DNA from: Solirubrobacterales bacterium
GTDB taxonomy: Bacteria > Actinomycetota > Thermoleophilia > Solirubrobacterales > 70-9
NCBI GenBank assembly: GCA_035764795.1
Contig: DASTYR010000240.1
Span: 1 to 26,900, forward strand
Direction of reading: 5' to 3'
Length of the DNA stretch: 26,900 nucleotides
The position numbers and the translations under genes were made by a program. Below, piece after piece: positions 5,633 through 22,241 of this stretch. The stretch's first letter is position 1, and each line of letters begins with the position of its first letter. A model generated the notes under the pieces. The model did not search any database. It was not told the DNA's origin and worked only from the letters and a program-made list of their open reading frames with translations.

Positions 5633-5908
5633 AAGTGGACCGTGCGCCCCGCCTTCGAAGCGAGGTCACCGGGCGTGTCCGTCGCGTTTGGCTCGAGCCG
5701 GGCTCACCTGCGGCACCCGCGGCTTCCGCTTAAGGCTGCTTCCTTCCGGACCTGACCTGGTTCACGTGCCTACGTCGCGCAGGACCCAACCGTCAACGCC
5801 GCCCGCGGCGCACTGACCCCGACGGCCAGCCCCTCGGAACGGGATTCGGCCCCGCTAGAGCGGATTGCGGGTTACAGGGCACCGCTGATTCCCCGCCTAG
5901 CACGGTCC
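5632..5908 (-). ncRNA. ffs: Large (Alu-domain, Bacillus-type) signal recognition particle RNA
   Basis: Minus strand starts GGACCGTGCTAGGCGGGGAATCAGCGGTGCCCTGTAACCCGCAATCCGCT, closely resembling B. subtilis scRNA. It contains the helix-8 core GAACCAGGTCAGGTCCGGAAGGAAGCAGC, has a terminal helix GGACCGTGC/GCACGGTCC, and a TAGGAT -10 upstream. Confidence 0.95.
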
Positions 5909-5964
5909 GCTTCCCATCCTAGCCGGCGAGCGCGAGGCTGGCGAACGCGGCTGTGAGGCGGTGG

Positions 5965-5988
5965 TCATCTCCGGTAGCCGAGGCTCAT
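5965..5988 (-). CDS. Candidate micro-ORF MSLGYRR
   Basis: SD GGGAGGTG (5993-6000) then ATG AGC CTC GGC TAC CGG AGA TGA. Intergenic. Translation is unproven. Confidence 0.45.
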   Translation of the reverse strand: MSLGYRR

Positions 5989-6096
5989 CTGGCACCTCCC
6001 ATCCGGGGCTTGCCGCTCGGCAGCGACTACTTGGTTCTAGGTACCCGCTGTCGTGCCGCTCCGCGGGGCCCTGGACGGACGTAGGATCAGCGCTCC

Positions 6097-13536: not shown

Positions 13537-14943
13537 CTAGCCGACGCTGACGCCGGGAACCTGGAAGCGGCCGGCTTCCACCCCGGGGCTTGCCGTCTCG
13601 GCGATCCGGGCTTCGAGCGCCAGCTCGCGCTCGAAGTCGGCCTCCTCGCCGTGGCGGAAGGAGACGTCCTCGCCCTCGAGCAGCTCGATGAAGATCTCGA
13701 CGAAGCGCGCGTCGAGCTGCTTGCCGGCCACGCGGCGCAGCTCCTGGATCGCCTCGTAGCTCGAGGTCGGCGTGCGGTAGGAGTCGCGCGCCGTCATCAC
13801 GTCGTAGGTGTCGGCGATCGAGATGATCCGGGCCAGCTCGGGAATGTCGTCACCTTCGAGGCCGCGCGGGTAGCCCTTGCCGTCGATCCGCTCGTGGTGG
13901 GCGAGGATGATGTCCGCGACCGGACCGTAACCGTCGAGGGAGGAGACGACGCGAGCGCCCTGCTGGGGGTGGCGGCGGATCAGCATCCAGTCTTCGTCGG
14001 TCAAGGGCACGTTAGCCTTCAGGATCCGGTCGGGGAGGATGAACTTGCCGATGTCGTGCAGCAGCGCGGCGATGTGCACGAGCTCCTCCTCCTGGCGCGA
14101 GAAGCCGGCGCGCTGGGCGATCGCCCGCGAGTACCGCGCCACGGCGGCGCTGTGGCGAGCCGTCATCTGGTCCCGCAGGTCGAGGGTGCGCAGCAGCGCG
14201 CTCAACATGCCGACCTGGAAGCTGGCGAGCTGCTTGCTGCGCCGCTCCAGCTCCTCGGCTCGCTGCTGAGAGACGATCAGGGCGCCAAGCAGGTACTGGA
14301 AGGTGACGAGGACGATGCCGAAAAGCGCGACCCCGGCCAGGCCGATCTCGTTGTAGATGAAGGCGACCCCAACCGCCATCAGCGCGGCGGCCATCTCGGA
14401 GGGGAGCAGCGGGAGCAGCGCGGTTCGCGCCTTCGCGACGAACGAGCTCCGCTCCAGATAGCAGGTATAGGCCGCCACCATCGTGAAGTTGATCGCCAGC
14501 GCGCCCAGGAAGACACCGAAGACCAACGGGTAGAAGGAGGGATCGGCGGCGGTTATGCCGAGGCCTTCGATCGTCTCGCGAAAAGCCCAACCGCCGACCA
14601 GGGGGAAGGTCGCGTAGGTGACGAGGTTGTTAAGCAGGTCGTGTGGCTCGTCGCGCCAGCGCACCCAGCCGACCAGGATCGAGGCGACGCCGATGATCGC
14701 CGCCGGCGTGCCGCCAAGGAAGACCATCGCCAGGACCAACGCCAGGAAGCTGCCGGAGATCTTGAGGCGCGATTCGGTTTCGATCGCCGTCAGGTCGCTG
14801 AAGATCGAGAAGCCGAGCAGGATGCCGAACAGGGCGGGATCCCAGTCGGCGGCTGGGGCACGAACCACCGCGCCCACAGCGATGACGGCCAGGAAGGCAA
14901 TCTCCAGGCCGATGATCAGCGGTGTCGGACGCTTGCCTTGCAT
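13537..14943 (-). CDS. Membrane-anchored HD-GYP phosphodiesterase
   Basis: About 7 N-terminal TM segments, LLHDIGK, HHERIDGKGYP and ADTYDVMT. Start taken as ATG 14943. Confidence 0.93.
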   Translation of the reverse strand: MQGKRPTPLIIGLEIAFLAVIAVGAVVRAPAADWDPALFGILLGFSIFSDLTAIETESRLKISGSFLALVLAMVFLGGTPAAIIGVASILVGWVRWRDEPHDLLNNLVTYATFPLVGGWAFRETIEGLGITAADPSFYPLVFGVFLGALAINFTMVAAYTCYLERSSFVAKARTALLPLLPSEMAAALMAVGVAFIYNEIGLAGVALFGIVLVTFQYLLGALIVSQQRAEELERRSKQLASFQVGMLSALLRTLDLRDQMTARHSAAVARYSRAIAQRAGFSRQEEELVHIAALLHDIGKFILPDRILKANVPLTDEDWMLIRRHPQQGARVVSSLDGYGPVADIILAHHERIDGKGYPRGLEGDDIPELARIISIADTYDVMTARDSYRTPTSSYEAIQELRRVAGKQLDARFVEIFIELLEGEDVSFRHGEEADFERELALEARIAETASPGVEAGRFQVPGVSVG

Positions 14944-15036
14944 TTTTCGTCGCCGGTCGATGACGATCGGCGTACGCAACAAGATTCATGCGAACTGCAT
15001 GGATCCCTGCGCTTGGGCAGCCACCTGCGCGCATGC

Positions 15037-15065
15037 AAAGTAATGGCTCGCTGGTGGGCGAGCAA
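15037..15065 (-). promoter_or_regulatory. Putative sigma70 promoter of the HD-GYP gene with an overlapping dyad
   Basis: TTGCTC-N17-TACTTT on the minus strand; GCTCGC-N6-GCGAGC at 15046-15063. Confidence 0.45.
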
Positions 15066-15207
15066 CAAATCCTGGTCGCCCGGCCAAAAGTGCAAAAGCC
15101 CGTGCAAGCGGCGATTTCAGGCCCAGAACGCGAAAAGACGCCCCCAGGGGACGCCCTCGCGAACAAAACGAAAGCTATAAGTAGCGCTTCGTTTTACCTT
15201 CTAAGTC

Positions 15208-15225
15208 TTAGCGACGGTAGCCCAT
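15208..15225 (-). CDS. Candidate micro-ORF MGYRR
   Basis: SD GAAGGGA (15234-15240), 8-nt spacer, then ATG GGC TAC CGT CGC TAA. Followed by hairpins. Translation is unproven. Confidence 0.45.
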   Translation of the reverse strand: MGYRR

Positions 15226-15379
15226 GCCTAAATTCCCTTCTTGTTGACTGAAGCCCTTCAGATCGCGGTGACGACCTGAAACTCGTGCGTTGCGTGAACA
15301 ACTTGTAGCACAACTTCGCGGAAACTTGTGCATCTGCAGCAAAAGTTGTGCAGAAATGAGGTAGGACGGAACGCGACTC

Positions 15380-16663
15380 GTGCGTAAATCACGCCTGATA
15401 GACCCGCTGCGACGACCGCCCTTCCGGCGTTTGGCGCTCTCCTACGCGGTAAACGAGCTCGGCGACTGGATGGGGATCGTCGCCCTCTCGGTGTTGGTCT
15501 TCGAGCAGACGGACAGCGCACTGGCGACTGCTCTGCTCTTCATTGGCACCGGGTTTCTGCCGGCGCTGCTCGCTCCGCTGCTGGTGGCGCGGGTCGAGCA
15601 ACCGCCCCCCCGCCTCGCGCTGCCGCTGATCTACTGCGGGGAGGCGGCGGCCTTCGGCGCCTTGGCCCTGCTCGCCGAGCACTTCTCGCTGACTGCAATC
15701 GTCGTCGTCGCCACGATCGACGGCGCTCTCGCCCTCGCCGGCCGCGCTCTGACCCGCGCCGTGACCGTCTCCATGCTGCAGCCGGAGGGAGAGCTGCGCG
15801 GCGGCAACGCGATCCTCAACGTCGCCTTCACCGGCGGCGCCGCCGTCGGCCCGGCGATCGCCGGGCTCGCCGTCGCCGCCTTCGGGGTCCAGACGGCACT
15901 GCTGCTCGACGCGATCTCGTTCTACGCAATCGCCTGGATCCTCTTCACAGGCGGCAAGCTCCCGCAGGCGACGCCCGAACCCGGGCGGCTGCGCGAGCGG
16001 GTCCGCGCCGGGCTCGGCTACATCCGCTTCAACCGGACGTTGCGTCGCCTGCTGGTCGCCCAGACCGGCGCCTTCGTGTTCTTCGCCGCGGTGCTGCCGA
16101 TCGAGGTCATCTACGCCAAGGAGACGCTCGACGCCGGCGACACCGGCTATGGGCTGCTGCTGGGCAGCTGGGGGGCCGGGATGCTGCTGGGCAGCCTCGT
16201 CTTCGCGGTGCTGCGGCAGGCGGCGTTGCCGATGCTGATCTTCTTCGGCACGCTTGCGGTCGGCGCCGGCTACCTGGCGATGGGCACCGCGCCGACCCTG
16301 GCCGTCGCCTGCGCGGCGGCGGTGCTCGGCGGTGCCGGCAACGGCGTGCAGTGGGTCGCGGTCATCAGCGCCGTGCAGGAGCTGACCAGCGAGCAGATGC
16401 AGGCGCGCGTGGTCAGTGTGCTCGAGTCGGCGAGCATGCTCGGGCAGGGCGGCGGGTTCGTCCTCGGCGGCGCCATAGCCAGCTTGCTGAGCCCTCGCGC
16501 GACCTTCCTGGTTGCCGGAGCGGGTGTCCTCGCAATAGTCGCAGTCGTCGCGCCGTTGCTCGGAAAGAGCTGGATTTCCAGCGATTCCGGCACGCTGGCC
16601 AGGCGTCCAGCCGACCTTGACGCCGCCGACGAGATTATGGTGGAGTTAATTCCCGGGAGGTAG
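15380..16663 (+). CDS. MFS transporter (MFS_3/Tap-like exporter)
   Basis: About 12 TM segments, LRRPPFRRLALSYAVNELGDWM N-terminus, GLGYI and GRV motifs. Confidence 0.9.
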   Translation: MRKSRLIDPLRRPPFRRLALSYAVNELGDWMGIVALSVLVFEQTDSALATALLFIGTGFLPALLAPLLVARVEQPPPRLALPLIYCGEAAAFGALALLAEHFSLTAIVVVATIDGALALAGRALTRAVTVSMLQPEGELRGGNAILNVAFTGGAAVGPAIAGLAVAAFGVQTALLLDAISFYAIAWILFTGGKLPQATPEPGRLRERVRAGLGYIRFNRTLRRLLVAQTGAFVFFAAVLPIEVIYAKETLDAGDTGYGLLLGSWGAGMLLGSLVFAVLRQAALPMLIFFGTLAVGAGYLAMGTAPTLAVACAAAVLGGAGNGVQWVAVISAVQELTSEQMQARVVSVLESASMLGQGGGFVLGGAIASLLSPRATFLVAGAGVLAIVAVVAPLLGKSWISSDSGTLARRPADLDAADEIMVELIPGR

Positions 16664-16725
16664 TCGAGTCGAGAATGCGGCGATGGCCGCCCGGGAGTCG
16701 TGTCCCAGTCCCAACGGAGGAGGTC

Positions 16726-18423
16726 GTGTTGAGGAAGGCAATGGGGATCCTTGCGGGACTGAGTGTTTCAACGGCGCTTTCCATTAGCTTGGGCGCCTGC
16801 GGGAGCGAGGACAGCAGCGATTCGGGTGGGGGTGCCAAAGGCGGCTCGATCACGATCGCCCAGGCAGCACAGCCCGACTTCCTCGACCCGGCGCTCTCGT
16901 ATTCGACGCACGGTTGGGAACCGATGTGGCAGGTCTACACGCCGCTGGTCACCTACAAACGCGAGGAGGGGGAGGCGGGAACCGAACTCATGCCCGGCCT
17001 CGCCGAGGAGCTGCCGAAGATCAGCGCCGACGGCAAGACCTATGAGCTGACTCTGCGCGACGGCCTGCGCTACTCCGACGGGACGCCGGTCAAAGCAAGC
17101 GACTTCGAGCACACGATCAAGCGGGTCCTCAACCTCGAGTCGGGTGGCTCGTTCTATTTCGAACCGATCGAGGGAGCCGGCGACTACGTCGCCGCGGGCA
17201 AACCGGAGGGCGACATCTCCGGTATCGAGACCGACGACAAAACCGGGGAGATCACGATCCGCCTGACCGCGCCGGAAGTCGCCTTCAGCAACGTCCTGGC
17301 GATGAACTTCGCGGGCATCGTGCCGAGCGACACGCCGTTCGAGAACGCGACGGGCGATCCAGCGCCGGGTGTCGGCCCCTACATGTTCACCAAATCGGTC
17401 CCCAACCGGGAATTCGTGCTCGAGAAGAACCCGCGATTCAGCGAGGGCACCATCCCCGGCGTCCCCGAGGCGAACATCGAGACGGTGACGACCAAAATCG
17501 TCCCCAACGTCACCCAGCAGACGCAGGACGTGATCGACAACGAGCTCGACTTCATGCAGGAACCGCCGGCCACCGACCTGCGAGCCGAGATCCTGGCGCG
17601 ACTGGGCCCGGAGGGAAGCGAGGAACAGCGCTTCGAAGAATTCCCGACCCTCTCCACCTACTACTTCTTCCTCAACACGCGGGTGCCGCCCTTCGACGAC
17701 CAGAAGGTGCGCGAAGCGGTCAACGTCGGTGTCGACAGGTCTGGCCTGGCGCGCATCTACGCGGGCGAAATGGCGCCCGGATGCTCGTTCCTGCCGCCCC
17801 GGATGCCCGGCTACACCGAAGAGACCGACCTGAGCGGCTGCCCGTGGGGGGACCCCAGCCAGGCGGCCGACATCGATCGCGCCAAGCAGCTGATTCGCGA
17901 GGCAGGGGCGGAGGGCGCCGAGGTCACCGTCTGGGGCGACGACGTCGAGACGACGCCGAAAGTCACTCAGGCGTACGCCGACATGCTCAATCAGATCGGT
18001 CTCGACGCGGAGCCTAAAATCATCAACGGCGGCGTCTACTTCCAGACGATCGGCAACCAGAAGACCGAAGCGCAGACCGGCTTCCTCAACTTCTTCGCCG
18101 ACTTCCCGCACCCGATCAACTTCTTTTTCGTGATGCGCGGCGACGCGATCCAGCCCACCAACAACCAGAACATGAGCAACGTCGACGACGCCCATATCGA
18201 CGATGAAGTCACGGCGCTGGGGGAAGAGACGGAGCTGGAGGCGGTCACCGACCGCTGGGAGGAGCTCAACGACTACGTCGCCGAGAAATCCTACATCGCG
18301 CCCTTCGGGCACAGGAAACTGACCACGTTCGTCTCCGACCGGATCGACTTCGAGAACTGCACCGTCGTCCATCCGATCTACTACAACGACTACTCGCAGT
18401 TCTGCCTGAAGGAAGCCGAATAG
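16726..18423 (+). CDS. Opp/Dpp-type ABC substrate-binding lipoprotein (family 5)
   Basis: SD GGAGGAGG, lipobox LGAC, PGLAEELPKISADGKTYELTLRDGLRYSDGTPVKASDF, and PFDDQKVREAVN. Confidence 0.93.
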   Translation: MLRKAMGILAGLSVSTALSISLGACGSEDSSDSGGGAKGGSITIAQAAQPDFLDPALSYSTHGWEPMWQVYTPLVTYKREEGEAGTELMPGLAEELPKISADGKTYELTLRDGLRYSDGTPVKASDFEHTIKRVLNLESGGSFYFEPIEGAGDYVAAGKPEGDISGIETDDKTGEITIRLTAPEVAFSNVLAMNFAGIVPSDTPFENATGDPAPGVGPYMFTKSVPNREFVLEKNPRFSEGTIPGVPEANIETVTTKIVPNVTQQTQDVIDNELDFMQEPPATDLRAEILARLGPEGSEEQRFEEFPTLSTYYFFLNTRVPPFDDQKVREAVNVGVDRSGLARIYAGEMAPGCSFLPPRMPGYTEETDLSGCPWGDPSQAADIDRAKQLIREAGAEGAEVTVWGDDVETTPKVTQAYADMLNQIGLDAEPKIINGGVYFQTIGNQKTEAQTGFLNFFADFPHPINFFFVMRGDAIQPTNNQNMSNVDDAHIDDEVTALGEETELEAVTDRWEELNDYVAEKSYIAPFGHRKLTTFVSDRIDFENCTVVHPIYYNDYSQFCLKEAE

Positions 18424-19415
18424 AGACCACGGCGGAGCGTCCGCCGACGGCCGCGGCGAGTGGCCCGTGGAGCCTGACCGGGCGCCGGCTGCGACGCAAC
18501 CGGCCGGCGCTCGCCTTCGGTGCCGTCTTCCTGATGCTGGGCGGCGCCTGTCTCGCCGCTCCCCTGTGGGCCAGCCAGGTCGCCCACACCACCCCTGAGG
18601 CGAACCACCTCAGCGACAAAGTCGAGATCGACGGCGAGCCGACCGAAGTCGTCGACCTGCTCGGCAAGCCGATCGGGCCGACCTGGAGCGGCCGCTTCTT
18701 CCTCGGCGCCGACAGCAACGGGCGCGACATCATGGTGCGACTCCTCTACGGCGGCCGCAACTCGCTGCTGGTCGGCATAGCCGGGGCGCTCGGCACGATC
18801 GCGCTGGGGCTGCTGCTCGGACTGCTGGCGGGCTACCACCGCGGCCGCGTCGACACCGCGATCAGCTGGGCGATGGACGTGCTCTGGGCCTTTCCGGTGA
18901 TCCTGATCGGCATCGCGCTCGGCACCGCGCTCGCCCTCGGCGGGCTCGAGCTGGGCCCGATCACGATTGAGGGCGACTCGCTCGCGATCCCGATCTTCGT
19001 GATCGCGGTGATCTACGTCCCCTACATGGCGCGGCCGATCCGCGGTCAGGTGCTGGCCCTGCGCGAGCGTGAATTCGTCGAGGCCGCACGGGCGCAGGGG
19101 ATGGGACCGGCGCGGATCATCTTCAGCGAGATCCTCCCGAACGTGGCGACGACCCTGGTCGTCTTCCTCCCCCTCCTGGTCGCCAACGCGATCCTGCTCG
19201 AGGCGGCACTGTCCTTCCTCGGTGCCGGCGTGCAGCCGCCCAACGCCTCCTGGGGGACGATGATCGCCGAAGGCTTCGACCGGATCACCTCGGCGCCCCA
19301 TCTGTCGATCGTGCCCGGCCTCATGCTGGTAGCCACGGTGCTGTCGCTGAACGTCTTCGGCGAAGGAGTGCGCGACGCCCTCGACCCCAAGGCGAAGCTG
19401 AGGCTCGAGCACTGA
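18420..19415 (+). CDS. Opp/Dpp permease (OppC/DppC-like); start uncertain, possibly ATA 18420
   Basis: FFLGADSNGRD, RNSL, EFVEAARAQG and PSWG-like motifs. The N-terminal 'RRLRRNRPALAFG' segment lies upstream of the first ATG (18534). Confidence 0.88.
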   Translation: METTAERPPTAAASGPWSLTGRRLRRNRPALAFGAVFLMLGGACLAAPLWASQVAHTTPEANHLSDKVEIDGEPTEVVDLLGKPIGPTWSGRFFLGADSNGRDIMVRLLYGGRNSLLVGIAGALGTIALGLLLGLLAGYHRGRVDTAISWAMDVLWAFPVILIGIALGTALALGGLELGPITIEGDSLAIPIFVIAVIYVPYMARPIRGQVLALREREFVEAARAQGMGPARIIFSEILPNVATTLVVFLPLLVANAILLEAALSFLGAGVQPPNASWGTMIAEGFDRITSAPHLSIVPGLMLVATVLSLNVFGEGVRDALDPKAKLRLEH

Positions 19416-20389
19416 TGCGGGGGGCATTGGCACGTTTTGCCGCCCGCCGCCTCGCCTCCATGGTGTTGGTGCTGCTCGCCGTCTCCCTGCTCGTCTTCGC
19501 GATCTTCAACGTGCTGCCGGGCGGCGACCCCGCCGTGAGGATGGCGGGGAAAATCCCCACCGAAACGCAGGTCGAGGCGATCCGCGAAGAGTGGGGCTTC
19601 GACGAACCGGTCTACGTCCAGTACGTGACGACGATGGAGAAGCTCTTCAGCGGCGACCTGGTCTCCTATTTCACGCAGCTCAACGTGACCGAGGAGATCC
19701 TCAAGGGCGCGCCGCGCACCTTCGCTCTCGCCATCGGAGCGGCGATCATCTGGATGGTCTTCGCGATCGCGCTCGGCCTCTACAGCGCTATGCGGGTCGG
19801 CACGCTGTCGGACCGACTGCTGACCGTGCTGGCGCTGATCGGGATCTCGATGCCGGTCTTCTGGCTCGGCATCCTGCTCAGCCACTACCTCGGCTACGAG
19901 GCCGGCATCTTCCCCACCGGGGAATACGTCGAGTTCCTCGACAGCCCGACCCAGTGGTTCTGGCATCTCGTCCTGCCCTGGTTCACGCTCGCGGTCCTCT
20001 TCATCGGCATCTACTCGCGCGTACTGCGCTCGAACATCCTCGAGACCATGGACGAGGACTACGTCCGCGCCGCGCGGGCTAAGGGATTGCCCGAGCGGCA
20101 GGTTCTGCTCAAGCACGTGCTGCGCAACTCGCTGATTCCGATCGTGACCCTATGGGGGCTCGACTTCGGCGCTGTGATCGGCGGGGCGGCGATTCTCACC
20201 GAGCTCGTGTTCAGCCTCCAGGGGGTCGGCCAATACACGGCCGAGGCGATCGAGCAGCTCGACGTACCAGCCGTGATGGCCGTGACGATGTACGGGGCCT
20301 TCTTCATCGTCATCTTCAACGCGCTGGTCGATATCGCCTACGCGGCGCTCGACCCCCGCATCCGGCTCGAGGGACGGCGGCAAGCGTGA
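19415..20389 (+). CDS. Opp/Dpp permease (OppB/DppB-like)
   Basis: PGGDPAVRM, SMPVFWLG, EDYVRAARAKGL and RNSLIP motifs. Confidence 0.93.
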   Translation: MRGALARFAARRLASMVLVLLAVSLLVFAIFNVLPGGDPAVRMAGKIPTETQVEAIREEWGFDEPVYVQYVTTMEKLFSGDLVSYFTQLNVTEEILKGAPRTFALAIGAAIIWMVFAIALGLYSAMRVGTLSDRLLTVLALIGISMPVFWLGILLSHYLGYEAGIFPTGEYVEFLDSPTQWFWHLVLPWFTLAVLFIGIYSRVLRSNILETMDEDYVRAARAKGLPERQVLLKHVLRNSLIPIVTLWGLDFGAVIGGAAILTELVFSLQGVGQYTAEAIEQLDVPAVMAVTMYGAFFIVIFNALVDIAYAALDPRIRLEGRRQA

Positions 20390-21405
20390 GCGGCGCGCCC
20401 CTGCTGGAGGTCCGCGAGCTGGCGGTCTCCTTCAACACCGAAGAGGGATCCGTCCGGGCGGTCGACCGGCTCGACCTCGACGTCGCGCCGGGGGAGGTGC
20501 TGGCGGTGGTGGGTGAGTCCGGCAGCGGCAAGTCGGTGACGGCGCTCACCCTGATGGGTCTCTCACGCGGACCGAACACGCGGATCTCGGGATCGGTCCG
20601 CTTCGACGGGATCGACCTGATCGCGGCACGCGACGAGGAGCTGCGGCGGATCAGAGGCGAGCGAATCGCGATGGTCTTCCAGGACCCGATGACCTCGCTG
20701 GACCCGGTCTACCGGGTCGGCGACCAGATCGTCGAGCAGATCCGCGCCCACCGCGAGACGTCCCGCGAGGAGGCGCGGAGTCGCGCGATCGAGCTGCTCG
20801 ACGCCGTCGGCATCCCGGACGCGGCGAGCCGTGCCGACGCCTACCCGCACCAGTTCTCCGGCGGAATGCGGCAGCGAGTGATGATCGCGATGGCACTCTC
20901 GCTCGACCCCTCGCTGCTGATCGCCGACGAGCCGACCACCGCGCTTGACGTGACGGTGCAGGCCCAGATCGTCGCGCTGCTGCGTGAGCTGAACCGCGCG
21001 CGTGGCCTCTCGGTCGTCCTGATCACGCATGACATCGGCCTGGTCGCGGAGGTCGCCGACCGCGTCGCGGTGATGTATGCGGGGCGGGTCGTCGAGCAGG
21101 GAACGCTCGACGAGGTCTTCTACGACCCCCAGCACCCCTACACCTGGGGGCTGCTCGGGTCGCTGACCCGGATTGACCGGCCGCGACCGGAGCGCCTGCC
21201 GCAAATTCCCGGCGCGCCGCCGTCGCTTCTCTCGCCGCCCCAGGGATGCCATTTCCGGCCCCGCTGCGCGCACGAGTTCGAGCGCTGCGCGCAGGTGCCG
21301 GACCTGGAGGCGCGGCTGGCCGAGGCACCGGGGCACCTCGACCGCTGCTGGCTCGACCCGGTCGAGAAGCGCGAGCGGCGGCCGATCGAGGTGGACGGAT
21401 CGTGA
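20386..21405 (+). CDS. Oligopeptide ABC ATP-binding protein (OppD/DppD-like)
   Basis: [38 protein letters not shown] and GC.F.PRC motifs. Confidence 0.94.
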   Translation: MSGAPLLEVRELAVSFNTEEGSVRAVDRLDLDVAPGEVLAVVGESGSGKSVTALTLMGLSRGPNTRISGSVRFDGIDLIAARDEELRRIRGERIAMVFQDPMTSLDPVYRVGDQIVEQIRAHRETSREEARSRAIELLDAVGIPDAASRADAYPHQFSGGMRQRVMIAMALSLDPSLLIADEPTTALDVTVQAQIVALLRELNRARGLSVVLITHDIGLVAEVADRVAVMYAGRVVEQGTLDEVFYDPQHPYTWGLLGSLTRIDRPRPERLPQIPGAPPSLLSPPQGCHFRPRCAHEFERCAQVPDLEARLAEAPGHLDRCWLDPVEKRERRPIEVDGS

Positions 21406-22241
21406 GCGGCGAGCCGCTCCTGGAGGTCCGCGGCCTCGCCAAGCACTTCGACCCCGGCGCGGGGCTATTCGGGCGCGGCGGGGAGCCGGTGCGGGCGGTC
21501 GACGGCGTCGACCTCCGGGTCGCCACCGGTGAGACGCTCGGCCTGGTCGGCGAGTCGGGCTCCGGCAAGTCAACCCTCTGCCGCGCCATTCTGCGGCTGG
21601 TCGAGCCGACGGCAGGCTCGGTTCGCTTCGAGGGCCAGGAGCTGACCGAGTTGAGCCAGCGCCGACTACGGCCCCTGAGGCGGCACGTGCAGATGATCTT
21701 CCAGAACCCCTCCGCTTCGCTGAATCCGCGCAAGCGCGTCGGCGACATCGTCGGCGCGCCGCTGAAGTTGCACGGACTCGCCTCCGGGGCAGAGCTGCAC
21801 CGTCGAGTAGGCGAGCTACTCGGCCGGGTCGGCCTCTCACCCGAGCACCTCGGGCGCTACCCGCACGAGTTCTCCGGCGGGCAGCGCCAGCGGATCGGCA
21901 TCGCGCGCGCGCTGGCGACCGAACCGAAGTTGATCCTCGCCGACGAGCCGGTCTCGGCGCTCGACGTCTCGATCCGGGCCCAGATCGTCAACCTCCTTCA
22001 GGACATCCAGGACGAGATGGGGATCGCCTATCTCTTCGTCGCCCACGACATCGGCATCGTCCGCCACGTCTCCGACCGGATCGCCGTCATGCACCGCGGC
22101 AGGATCGTCGAGCAGGGTCAGACCGACCAAGTCTGCGAACAGCCACGCGACCCCTACACCCAGGAGTTGCTCGCCGCGGTACCGGTTCCCGACCCGCGCG
22201 AGGCGCGGGCCCGGCGCTCGACGGGGGGTGTTGGAGGTTGA
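21402..22241 (+). CDS. Oligopeptide ABC ATP-binding protein (OppF/DppF-like)
   Basis: [20 protein letters not shown] and [11 protein letters not shown] motifs; GTGA overlap with the previous gene. Confidence 0.94.

Follow-up and report, generated by a model that had tools for sequence, protein, structure and literature searches.

The window analyzed here, i.e., a stretch of 26,900 nucleotides (26.9 kb) from a Solirubrobacterales bacterium, contains two divergent genes separated by a gap at positions 15000-15400, which is read here on the minus strand. On one side of the gap lies the gene of a membrane-bound HD-GYP protein, a homologue of phosphodiesterases that act on cyclic di-GMP (c-di-GMP), and on the other side that of a major facilitator superfamily transporter (MFS_3). 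Within the gap, a Shine-Dalgarno (SD) sequence is followed by a five-codon open reading frame (ORF) that encodes the peptide MGYRR, a small dyad, an AT-rich hairpin and a GC-rich hairpin. All of these elements had been described in an original prediction made from the window alone, and all are present on the minus strand. Their layout had been taken to resemble either a leader-peptide attenuator, with tandem Arg codons, or a peptide-coding small RNA (sRNA) linked to c-di-GMP turnover.

An 18-bp gene and its predicted transcription unit

Homologous loci were collected with a noncoding block that is located upstream of the ORF (Table 1) and that contains two direct TGCACAA(G/C)TT repeats, 20 nt apart, as well as an inverted TTGTGC. 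The block pattern was matched at 21/21 loci and gave 0 control matches; among 201 genomes of the family it is found once per genome in 49, which span 16 of the 58 genera. In a scan of one genome per species, at least 119 metagenome-assembled genomes (MAGs) were matched on this upstream block alone, nearly all of them labeled Solirubrobacterales, Thermoleophilia or Actinomycetota, and one labeled Chloroflexota. Among the 135 species-level units anchored in this manner, a short ORF preceded by an SD sequence is found at the equivalent position in 133. The two exceptions carry a one-base insertion just before the stop codon, and in those assemblies the neighboring genes are fragmented too.

When 20 loci from the same genus were aligned, the five-codon ORF and its SD sequence were found at the same site in all 20, with the peptides MGYRR, MGFHH, MGFRH, MVFKR, MAWKK and MWLKR, and with the longer in-frame variants MGYRHG and MGFHAGH. 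Over the whole set the peptides follow the pattern M-G-[F/Y/W]-[R/K/H]-x in 5-7 codons and all insertions and deletions are in frame; the commonest peptides are MGFRH, MGYRH and MGFHH, and Lys, Arg and His interchange. The same constraint is seen at the level of the codons. Among 120 ORFs of five codons, 104 have GGY as codon 2. At codon 3, TAC (39), TTT (33), TTC (30), TGG (17) and CTT (1) are found, and never TCN (Ser), TGY (Cys) or TTR (Leu). Codon 4 is CGY, AAR or CAY with a nearly free third base (0.38 bit), and codon 5 is mostly CAC, CGN, AAY or AAR. The information content peaks over the SD sequence and the ORF, with less than about 0.5 bit on either side. A pool of 192 micro-ORFs was composed of 133 block-anchored ORFs collected with no motif filter and of 59 others found with a filter that included the residues at positions 2-4. 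Here, Gly occupies position 2 in 85%, and position 3 has Phe, Tyr or Trp in 99.5% (Phe in 93 of the 192); Arg, Lys or His is found at position 4, and about half of the peptides have Arg, Lys, Asn, Ser or Gly at position 5. The lengths in this pool are five codons (144 ORFs), six codons (39) and seven codons (9). The genome from which the window was taken contains exactly one such ORF in 1.81 Mb, i.e., the gene is present in a single copy.

Judged by this pattern of substitutions, the window ORF is a genuine 18-bp protein-coding gene under amino-acid-level selection. The five-codon ORF noted earlier is in this respect a real conserved coding feature, and conservation in relatives, which had been named as a check, was found for the micro-ORF, the SD sequence and the terminator. 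At one locus (L146, in genome G099) a 12-nt direct duplication, GGCACTAATTAG GCACTAATTAG, is found across the last codon and the stop codon of MGFRH, where the first ORF is left intact; the duplication is a recent slippage event. A second ORF in the window, MSLGYRR (5965-6000, minus strand), which is located upstream of the signal recognition particle (SRP) RNA gene, was considered and is a chance ORF: a comparable ORF was found in 0/13 relatives, and in 22 same-genus genomes the DNA similarity begins only about 25 nt before the SRP RNA.

The features that surround the micro-gene are consistent with a transcription unit of its own (Table 1). The position of the putative -10 box is homologous to that of TANNNT boxes (TAGGCT, TAAGCT, TATCCT) of the micro-gene unit in other genera, where the promoter is canonical (TTGCAA, a spacer of 16-18 nt and TANNNT) and where the unit has its own terminator. 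Transcription in the window would start near position 15295. At 5906-5935 (minus strand; loci L165-L177), the SRP RNA gene mentioned above is preceded by a well-conserved TAGGAT/TACGAT -10 box (TANNNT), which provides a reference for promoters of this lineage. The conserved block lies in a region common to the micro-gene and the divergent MFS gene, and it probably serves as an operator as well. In the 5' untranslated region (5' UTR), the columns of GGGCTTC(G/A)AC are invariant in a 20-sequence alignment, and most of the 135 units contain the motif; a pairing partner was looked for and none was found. The motif is also repeated inside the ORF itself (ATGGGCTTC in Phe-type peptides). A local hairpin in the 5' UTR (P1) is often present, with a shuffle z-score near 0 such that selection is not demonstrable.

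Downstream of the stop codon, the only conserved part of the CTAAG/CTTAG dyad is a moderately conserved CUU about 4-5 nt after the stop. The AT-rich hairpin, referred to as H1, was followed in 118 distinct homologues, where its sequence is hypervariable and the hairpin persists, with a median free energy of -14, a median z-score of -2.35 and a start that most often falls 10 nt past the stop codon. Because H1 is lacking in some lineages (L144, L147, L031 and L073), it is considered to be accessory. The GC-rich hairpin is a predicted intrinsic terminator. Alignment with MAFFT followed by RNAalifold recovered this element only, with 11 pairs of which 6 show compensatory changes; H1 and P1 were judged by per-sequence shuffle statistics. 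A GC stem of 9-16 bp is found in nearly all units, with a median stability of -23.6 kcal/mol. The hairpin, with its G-U closure, forms only on the minus strand, as had been proposed, and the minimum free energy of positions 15120-15260 is -46.8 kcal/mol on the minus strand versus -34.8 kcal/mol on the plus strand; the z-score of the fold of the window sequence alone (-0.97) is statistically unremarkable. A simple consensus terminator scan did not list the hairpin at 15160-15129, because its U run is partly inside the stem. The Rfam comparison that had been suggested for this region (positions 14900-15450, Rfam 15, gathering as well as permissive thresholds with E up to 10) gave only two spurious eukaryotic/archaeal models and no relevant family. 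A conserved TTGCAAGGTATTGGCCAGG on the 3' side of the terminator resembles a plus-strand -24/-12 element; a sigma-54 promoter was rejected here, since no Sigma54_DBD was found in 5 genomes. Taken together, these features outline a candidate transcription unit of about 170 nt, which would consist of a sigma-A-type promoter that is embedded in the TGCACAA-repeat block, about 70 nt of 5' UTR, a strong SD sequence, the ORF, usually a stabilizing hairpin, and a strong terminator.

Table 1. Features of the micro-gene unit and of its surroundings in the window
Feature	Positions	Strand	Remarks
Conserved noncoding block, promoter/operator region	15309-15352	-	Strongest DNA conservation in relatives
Micro-gene -35, GCACAA	15331-15326	-	Putative; homologous to the canonical TTGCAA -35 of other genera
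Micro-gene -10, TACAAG	15302-15307	-	Putative; 18 nt after the -35
GGGCTTC in the 5' UTR	15250-15256	-	Within near-invariant GGGCTTC(G/A)AC, 21-33 nt before the ATG
Shine-Dalgarno sequence, GAAGGGA	15234-15240	-	Spacer of 8 nt to the ATG; information content peaks at -14 to -9 (113 distinct sequences)
Micro-gene, ATG GGC TAC CGT CGC TAA	15208-15225	-	MGYRR; kept in relatives (counts in text)
CTAAG-A-CTTAG dyad	15211-15201	-	Not conserved as a dyad
Hairpin H1, AAAACGAAGC...GCTTTCGTTTT	15165-15195	-	Folded; 14 bp, AT-rich; between stop codon and terminator
Intrinsic terminator (GC hairpin), GAGGGCGUCCCC/GGGGGCGUCUUU	15129-15160	-	Predicted; covariation; U-rich tail
Promoter of the HD-GYP gene	-35 TTGCTC, 15065-15060; -10 TACTTT, 15042-15037	-	Predicted; 17-nt spacer; conserved in 20 relatives
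Membrane HD-GYP c-di-GMP phosphodiesterase homologue	13537-14943	-	Multi-pass N-terminal domain (about 235 residues) and HD-GYP domain
MFS_3/DHA3-like transporter gene	15380-16663	+	Pfam, NCBIfam; first gene of the operon
Opp/Dpp-type ABC importer operon	16675-22241	+	Starts 11 nt after the MFS_3 gene

Linkage to a membrane sensor domain and a transporter

The HD-GYP protein encoded in the window matches Pfam HD_5 at 3e-37, and its catalytic motifs, LLHDIGK (HD) and HHERIDGKGYP, are intact. Full-length orthologues are found in 109/201 family genomes. In genera where the orthologue is at least 65% identical, the micro-ORF is found upstream of the gene even where the noncoding block has diverged (MGYRH, MGWRH, MGFRH, MGFRHG). 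For 16 more distant orthologues (55-63% identity), no micro-ORF was found within 1 kb upstream. The downstream flanks were analyzed for 20 distant orthologues from family f1, i.e., these 16 and four more, and in 17 of the 20 a micro-ORF is located 100-250 nt past the stop codon of the HD-GYP gene, convergent to that gene and divergent from the MFS gene. These micro-ORFs have their own predicted promoter and terminator, and the peptides include MGYRRG, MGYRKG, MGFRRG and MGWRRG. A class-wide pattern search revealed a further case in another family (G342), where MGYRN and a terminator are convergent with a full-length homologue of 45% identity.

In family f3, a micro-ORF is found within 500 nt of a gene end at 23 of 40 homologue loci; of the placements, 10 are co-oriented and upstream, 8 co-oriented and downstream, and 7 convergent. 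Outside the block-anchored set, the ORFs were identified with a filter that required an ATG or GTG start, an SD sequence and the motif M-[GASTV]-[FYW]-[RKH] in an ORF of 5-8 codons. When the criteria used for f3 were applied to the whole genome of the window organism, the window micro-gene was the one match, and chance is therefore excluded by orders of magnitude. The MFS_3 gene adjoins the micro-gene or the sensor gene at 135/135 block-anchored loci and at 63/97 further loci in two families, including 32/40 in f3. In total, the micro-gene family is found in about 190 species-level genomes of mostly uncultured soil Solirubrobacterales. Judged from gene order, a three-gene module composed of the micro-gene, the MFS_3 gene and the gene of a membrane sensor-domain protein is kept through rearrangements in at least two Solirubrobacterales families.

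At some loci the micro-gene is found in tandem arrays in which each copy has its own SD sequence. The array at L231 (genome G061) comprises four copies of MGFRKG with a spacing of about 100 nt, that at L198 (a homologue locus of f3, genome G644) three copies of MTWRNPR at 66 nt, and that at L185 (G656) two copies of MHWKH.

The partner that is common to these arrangements is the N-terminal membrane domain of the HD-GYP protein (residues 1-235), which has no Pfam match and which, among 401 Actinomycetota, is found only in genomes of the Solirubrobacterales class. The same domain is also fused to GGDEF-HD-GYP (L244, L250-L253) and to GGDEF-EAL (L245/L256 and L246/L255), i.e., three c-di-GMP output architectures with one N-terminal domain are found inside one order. 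At 7/7 loci of the GGDEF-EAL and GGDEF-HD-GYP paralogues for which the upstream flank is available, an SD-preceded micro-ORF is present 90-230 nt upstream of the gene, with the peptides MGFKTGR, MGARNH, MGYRSR (twice), MGYRGR, MSYRGR and MSYRTC, of which the last two have GTG starts. What the micro-gene is linked to is this membrane domain.

A predicted promoter of its own (Table 1), located downstream of the micro-gene terminator, precedes the HD-GYP gene. In 20 relatives this promoter consists of a TTGCCn -35 and a TAnnTT -10 at a constant spacing of 17 nt, where the letters of the spacer vary. More conserved blocks, CGCAAGTTGCG and GCAGGGAA, are found about 70 nt ahead of the HD-GYP ATG, within the 5' UTR of this gene (14944-15036, minus strand; L002-L021 aligned), where they may represent a second element that regulates the HD-GYP mRNA. 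In a subclade (L012-L021), the block TTGCgcaaATTGCAAGGTATTGGCCAGG (about 15075-15100, minus strand) is located directly upstream of the -35 of the HD-GYP gene. The reverse complement of this block mimics a sigma-54 -24/-12 element; a sigma-54 gene was not found in 5 genomes, and the block is more likely a transcription-factor site than a sigma-54 element.

On the other side of the gap, the substrate-binding protein of the Opp-like operon (SBP5; 16675-18423, plus strand; loci L022-L140) occurs as two types that have diverged deeply, in genomes that are otherwise syntenic and whose flanking genes are 60-75% identical. The identity to the window protein is about 40% for one type and 68-85% for the other. 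This pattern suggests replacement of the binding protein.

Possible roles of the micropeptide

At 135/135 loci of the window clade, a promoter, the short ORF, a hairpin, a terminator and the HD-GYP gene follow each other on one strand. In the attenuator model of the original prediction, translation of, or stalling on, the micro-ORF would set the read-through of the terminator into the HD-GYP gene. Tiny upstream ORFs that act as attenuators exist in Gram-positive bacteria, and H1 mostly starts 10 nt past the stop codon, i.e., close to the edge of a terminating ribosome. However, the duplex between the 3' arm of H1 and the 5' arm of the terminator (2:3) is no better than that obtained with shuffled arms (median z 0), and its best stability is -7.6 kcal/mol as compared to -23.6 kcal/mol for the terminator, which forms in 118/119 sequences when the 5' arm of H1 is blocked as a mimic of the ribosome. 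The terminator is predicted to be constitutive, i.e., to act without a competing antiterminator. In addition, H1 is missing in several lineages, and the conserved -35/17/-10 promoter of the HD-GYP gene is located past the terminator. The tandem Arg codons, which had been thought of as the sensor, are confined to a few lineages (Arg-Arg in 5/133 peptides), positions 4-5 vary between Arg, Lys, His, Asn and Ser, and no specific aminoacyl-tRNA is sensed because Lys, Arg and His interchange. In dozens of genomes the ORF, with its own terminator, is found downstream of the gene, either convergent or co-oriented. The attenuator model fails because an upstream leader that acts in cis cannot sit downstream of, or convergent with, the HD-GYP homologue, and we consider it to be very unlikely. 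Only slightly more credible, and still unlikely, is a base-pairing sRNA that regulates the mRNA of the sensor or of the MFS (in cis-antisense where the genes are convergent) and in which the short ORF is incidental or stabilizes the RNA. The size and architecture of the unit, i.e., its own promoter, hairpins and intrinsic terminator, would fit such a role, as would the C/U-rich single-stranded stretches beside H1 and the invariant GGGCUUC(G/A)AC in the 5' UTR of the window clade, and a convergent placement could give a 3' overlap with the HD-GYP mRNA. Yet, the SD sequence and the ORF, the latter at the amino-acid level, are all that is shared across genera and families; the 5' UTR, H1 and the pre-terminator segment are unconserved (CCAGU is found in 31% of the units and z of P1 is near 0), codon substitutions are synonymous or conservative, convergent units terminate before the HD-GYP gene, and the region has no relevant Rfam match. 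A genome search for complements of GGGCUUCGAC returned coding-region noise only. What stands of the earlier suggestion of a peptide-coding sRNA linked to c-di-GMP turnover is the genetic tie to c-di-GMP genes, by which it pointed in the right direction.

Two further explanations assign the function to the peptide inside the cell. The micro-gene could encode a minimal precursor of a ribosomally made and post-translationally modified peptide (RiPP) with an unlinked enzyme, or a peptide that modulates, from inside the cell, the MFS or the cytoplasmic side of the sensor. Precursor genes of five codons are an established class (bytA, of the MRYYH/MRYLH type), the aromatic-x-His or basic triads resemble crosslink motifs, the tandem copies are reminiscent of some RiPP families, and each genome has 6-10 cytochrome P450 genes. 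Against this explanation, no P450 or other tailoring gene is part of the conserved neighborhood, in line with the original prediction, which had noted that no modifying enzyme was visible in the window: in genome G000 and four complete relatives the nearest P450 (PF00067) is at least 40 kb from the micro-gene, and there is none in the 26.9-kb window. The only radical S-adenosylmethionine gene of the window belongs to the Rv2578c family, is 8 kb away and is not a RiPP enzyme. Furthermore, about half of the peptides have Phe at position 3, and Arg, Lys, Asn or Gly is common at position 5, which does not fit a fixed Tyr/Trp-x-His/Tyr/Trp crosslink, and a cytoplasmic role of this type is on the whole doubtful. 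The other explanation is a ribosome-directed minigene, in which translation of a peptide of 4-6 residues would act in cis on the ribosome, e.g., through ejection of a tunnel-binding antibiotic at termination, and which would be co-regulated with a DHA3/Mef/Tap-like MFS pump. The length held at 5-7 codons, the strong SD sequence of an autonomous unit and the positive charge of the C-terminal half are consistent with such a minigene. So is the grouping of the divergent MFS with TIGR00900/DHA3-like transporters, but this assignment is weak (101 bits versus a cut-off of 319), and the persistent linkage to c-di-GMP enzymes with a common membrane domain is left unexplained. We know of no natural chromosomal minigene of this kind, and this explanation appears highly improbable.

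The reading that we favor, to which we assign a probability of about 0.5, is that the directly encoded micropeptide serves the membrane sensor domain as a ligand or modulator and thereby tunes c-di-GMP turnover. Here, the ribosome would make the peptide directly, without a leader; in the most plausible version the adjacent MFS would export it as a minimal autocrine or quorum signal; and binding to, or modulation of, the membrane sensor domain would tune the turnover of c-di-GMP. Peptide and transporter would be co-regulated from the shared operator block. That the peptide is the product, and that it works with the sensor domain and probably with the transporter, is suggested by selection at the level of the amino acids, by a promoter and a terminator that belong to the unit itself, by amplification in tandem, and by an adjacency to one sensor-domain family and the MFS that persists across three or more gene orders and across three output architectures. 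A more specific proposal is possible and is put forward tentatively: a leaderless (f)Met-Gly-aromatic-basic-x signal would be exported by MFS_3 and sensed by a MASE9-like membrane domain, which would in turn drive outputs of the HD-GYP, GGDEF-HD-GYP or GGDEF-EAL type, i.e., a quorum or autocrine circuit that leads from a peptide to c-di-GMP. Such a circuit would also supply a first ligand to these orphan membrane sensor domains as a class. A metal-binding reading of the G-F-H peptides, as an amino-terminal copper- and nickel-binding (ATCUN) motif, was rejected, since whole clades have Lys or Arg in place of the His.

A number of observations weigh against a peptide ligand of the sensor domain. 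The motif filter used for the micro-ORFs of f1 and f3 partly imposes their consensus, about 40% of the f3 loci have no match to this filter, and one match in family f2 (G025) has no HD-GYP or MFS gene within 1.5 kb. The nearest clusters of the N-terminal domain in ESM features are those of MASE9, with a score of 0.94 that serves as a lead only, and the MASE9 hidden Markov model (PF20972) gave no match to the window protein at E up to 10, nor to six homologous domains at E up to 1. Re-import that is specific to Opp is unsupported, since the SBP5 type does not co-vary with the sequence of the micropeptide and the same peptides are found with both deep types. Larger residues also occur at position 2 (MHWKH, MNFKN, MLWKA), such that a common N-terminal processing is not assured. 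All genomes of the comparative set are MAGs, i.e., they represent uncultured organisms. An unmodified peptide of five residues is easily attacked by peptidases, and to our knowledge there is no precedent for a directly encoded five-residue signal.

If the peptide is a ligand or modulator, it would represent the first cue for a MASE-type sensor and the shortest directly encoded signaling peptide known, and it would provide a testable link between peptide signaling and c-di-GMP in Thermoleophilia. The host organisms are abundant soil Actinomycetota, which are mostly uncultured. Whatever the mechanism, linkage that is independent of orientation can be used to tell micro-genes from leader peptides.

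Comparison with known systems

Genes of 5-7 codons are invisible to annotation, and their only established natural class is that of the biarylitide precursors, which is defined by an adjacent P450. Judged by sequence and gene context, the micro-gene described here is a second, unrelated family of 18-21-bp genes. The five-codon bytA precursors of biarylitides (MRYYH/MRYLH-type and MKYWH, among others) are known from 277 clusters, some of them in tandem, and the P450 gene bytO is found within about 500 bp of bytA, or at 1.4 kb in one clade (PMC13417212). Both families consist of 18-bp, five-codon genes of Actinomycetota that are missed by annotation, have an aromatic residue at position 3, often a His at position 5, and occur in tandem copies. 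They differ at position 2, which is Gly here and Arg, Lys or Gln in biarylitides. In addition, the micro-gene has its own terminator, and its constant neighbors are a membrane c-di-GMP enzyme and an MFS transporter. Assignment to the biarylitides was rejected: only the MGYRH/MGWRH subset fits the core M-x-[Y/W]-x-[H/Y/W], and a P450 gene is not adjacent.

In Sinorhizobium, the released attenuator RNA rnTrpL and the peptide peTrpL are reported to act in trans (PMC6614838, PMC7298713). The likeness to this system lies in a very short ORF that precedes a hairpin and an intrinsic terminator, all of them located upstream of a gene. In contrast, the unit described here has no antiterminator and no conserved run of cognate codons, the downstream gene has its own promoter, and the ORF is often located downstream of, or convergent to, that gene. 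A constraint on length and a positive charge are found also in macrolide resistance peptides (E-peptide and library pentapeptides); the selected peptides have 4-6 residues, are sequence-dependent and exert their effect at termination, with a positive charge in those for oleandomycin (PMC2928234). Unlike the micro-gene, the macrolide resistance peptides are laboratory-selected or cryptic in rRNA and have no link to c-di-GMP.

The micro-gene, the MFS_3 gene and the gene of the membrane c-di-GMP enzyme are adjacent in several gene orders in two families, i.e., genes for a peptide, a transporter and a membrane sensor are linked, and in the window clade an Opp-type importer is found in the adjacent operon. 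The Agr, ComCDE and Phr/Opp systems likewise combine a peptide gene with a dedicated exporter and a membrane sensor, and their signals are cut from leader-bearing precursors of 40-60 residues. In contrast, the whole ORF has 5-7 codons here and no precursor would be processed, the putative exporter would be MFS_3 instead of an ABC/peptidase or AgrB exporter, and the output would be c-di-GMP instead of a histidine kinase or an RRNPP regulator. By analogy of gene content, a peptide autoinducer module would be the nearest functional analogue of the three-gene module described here.

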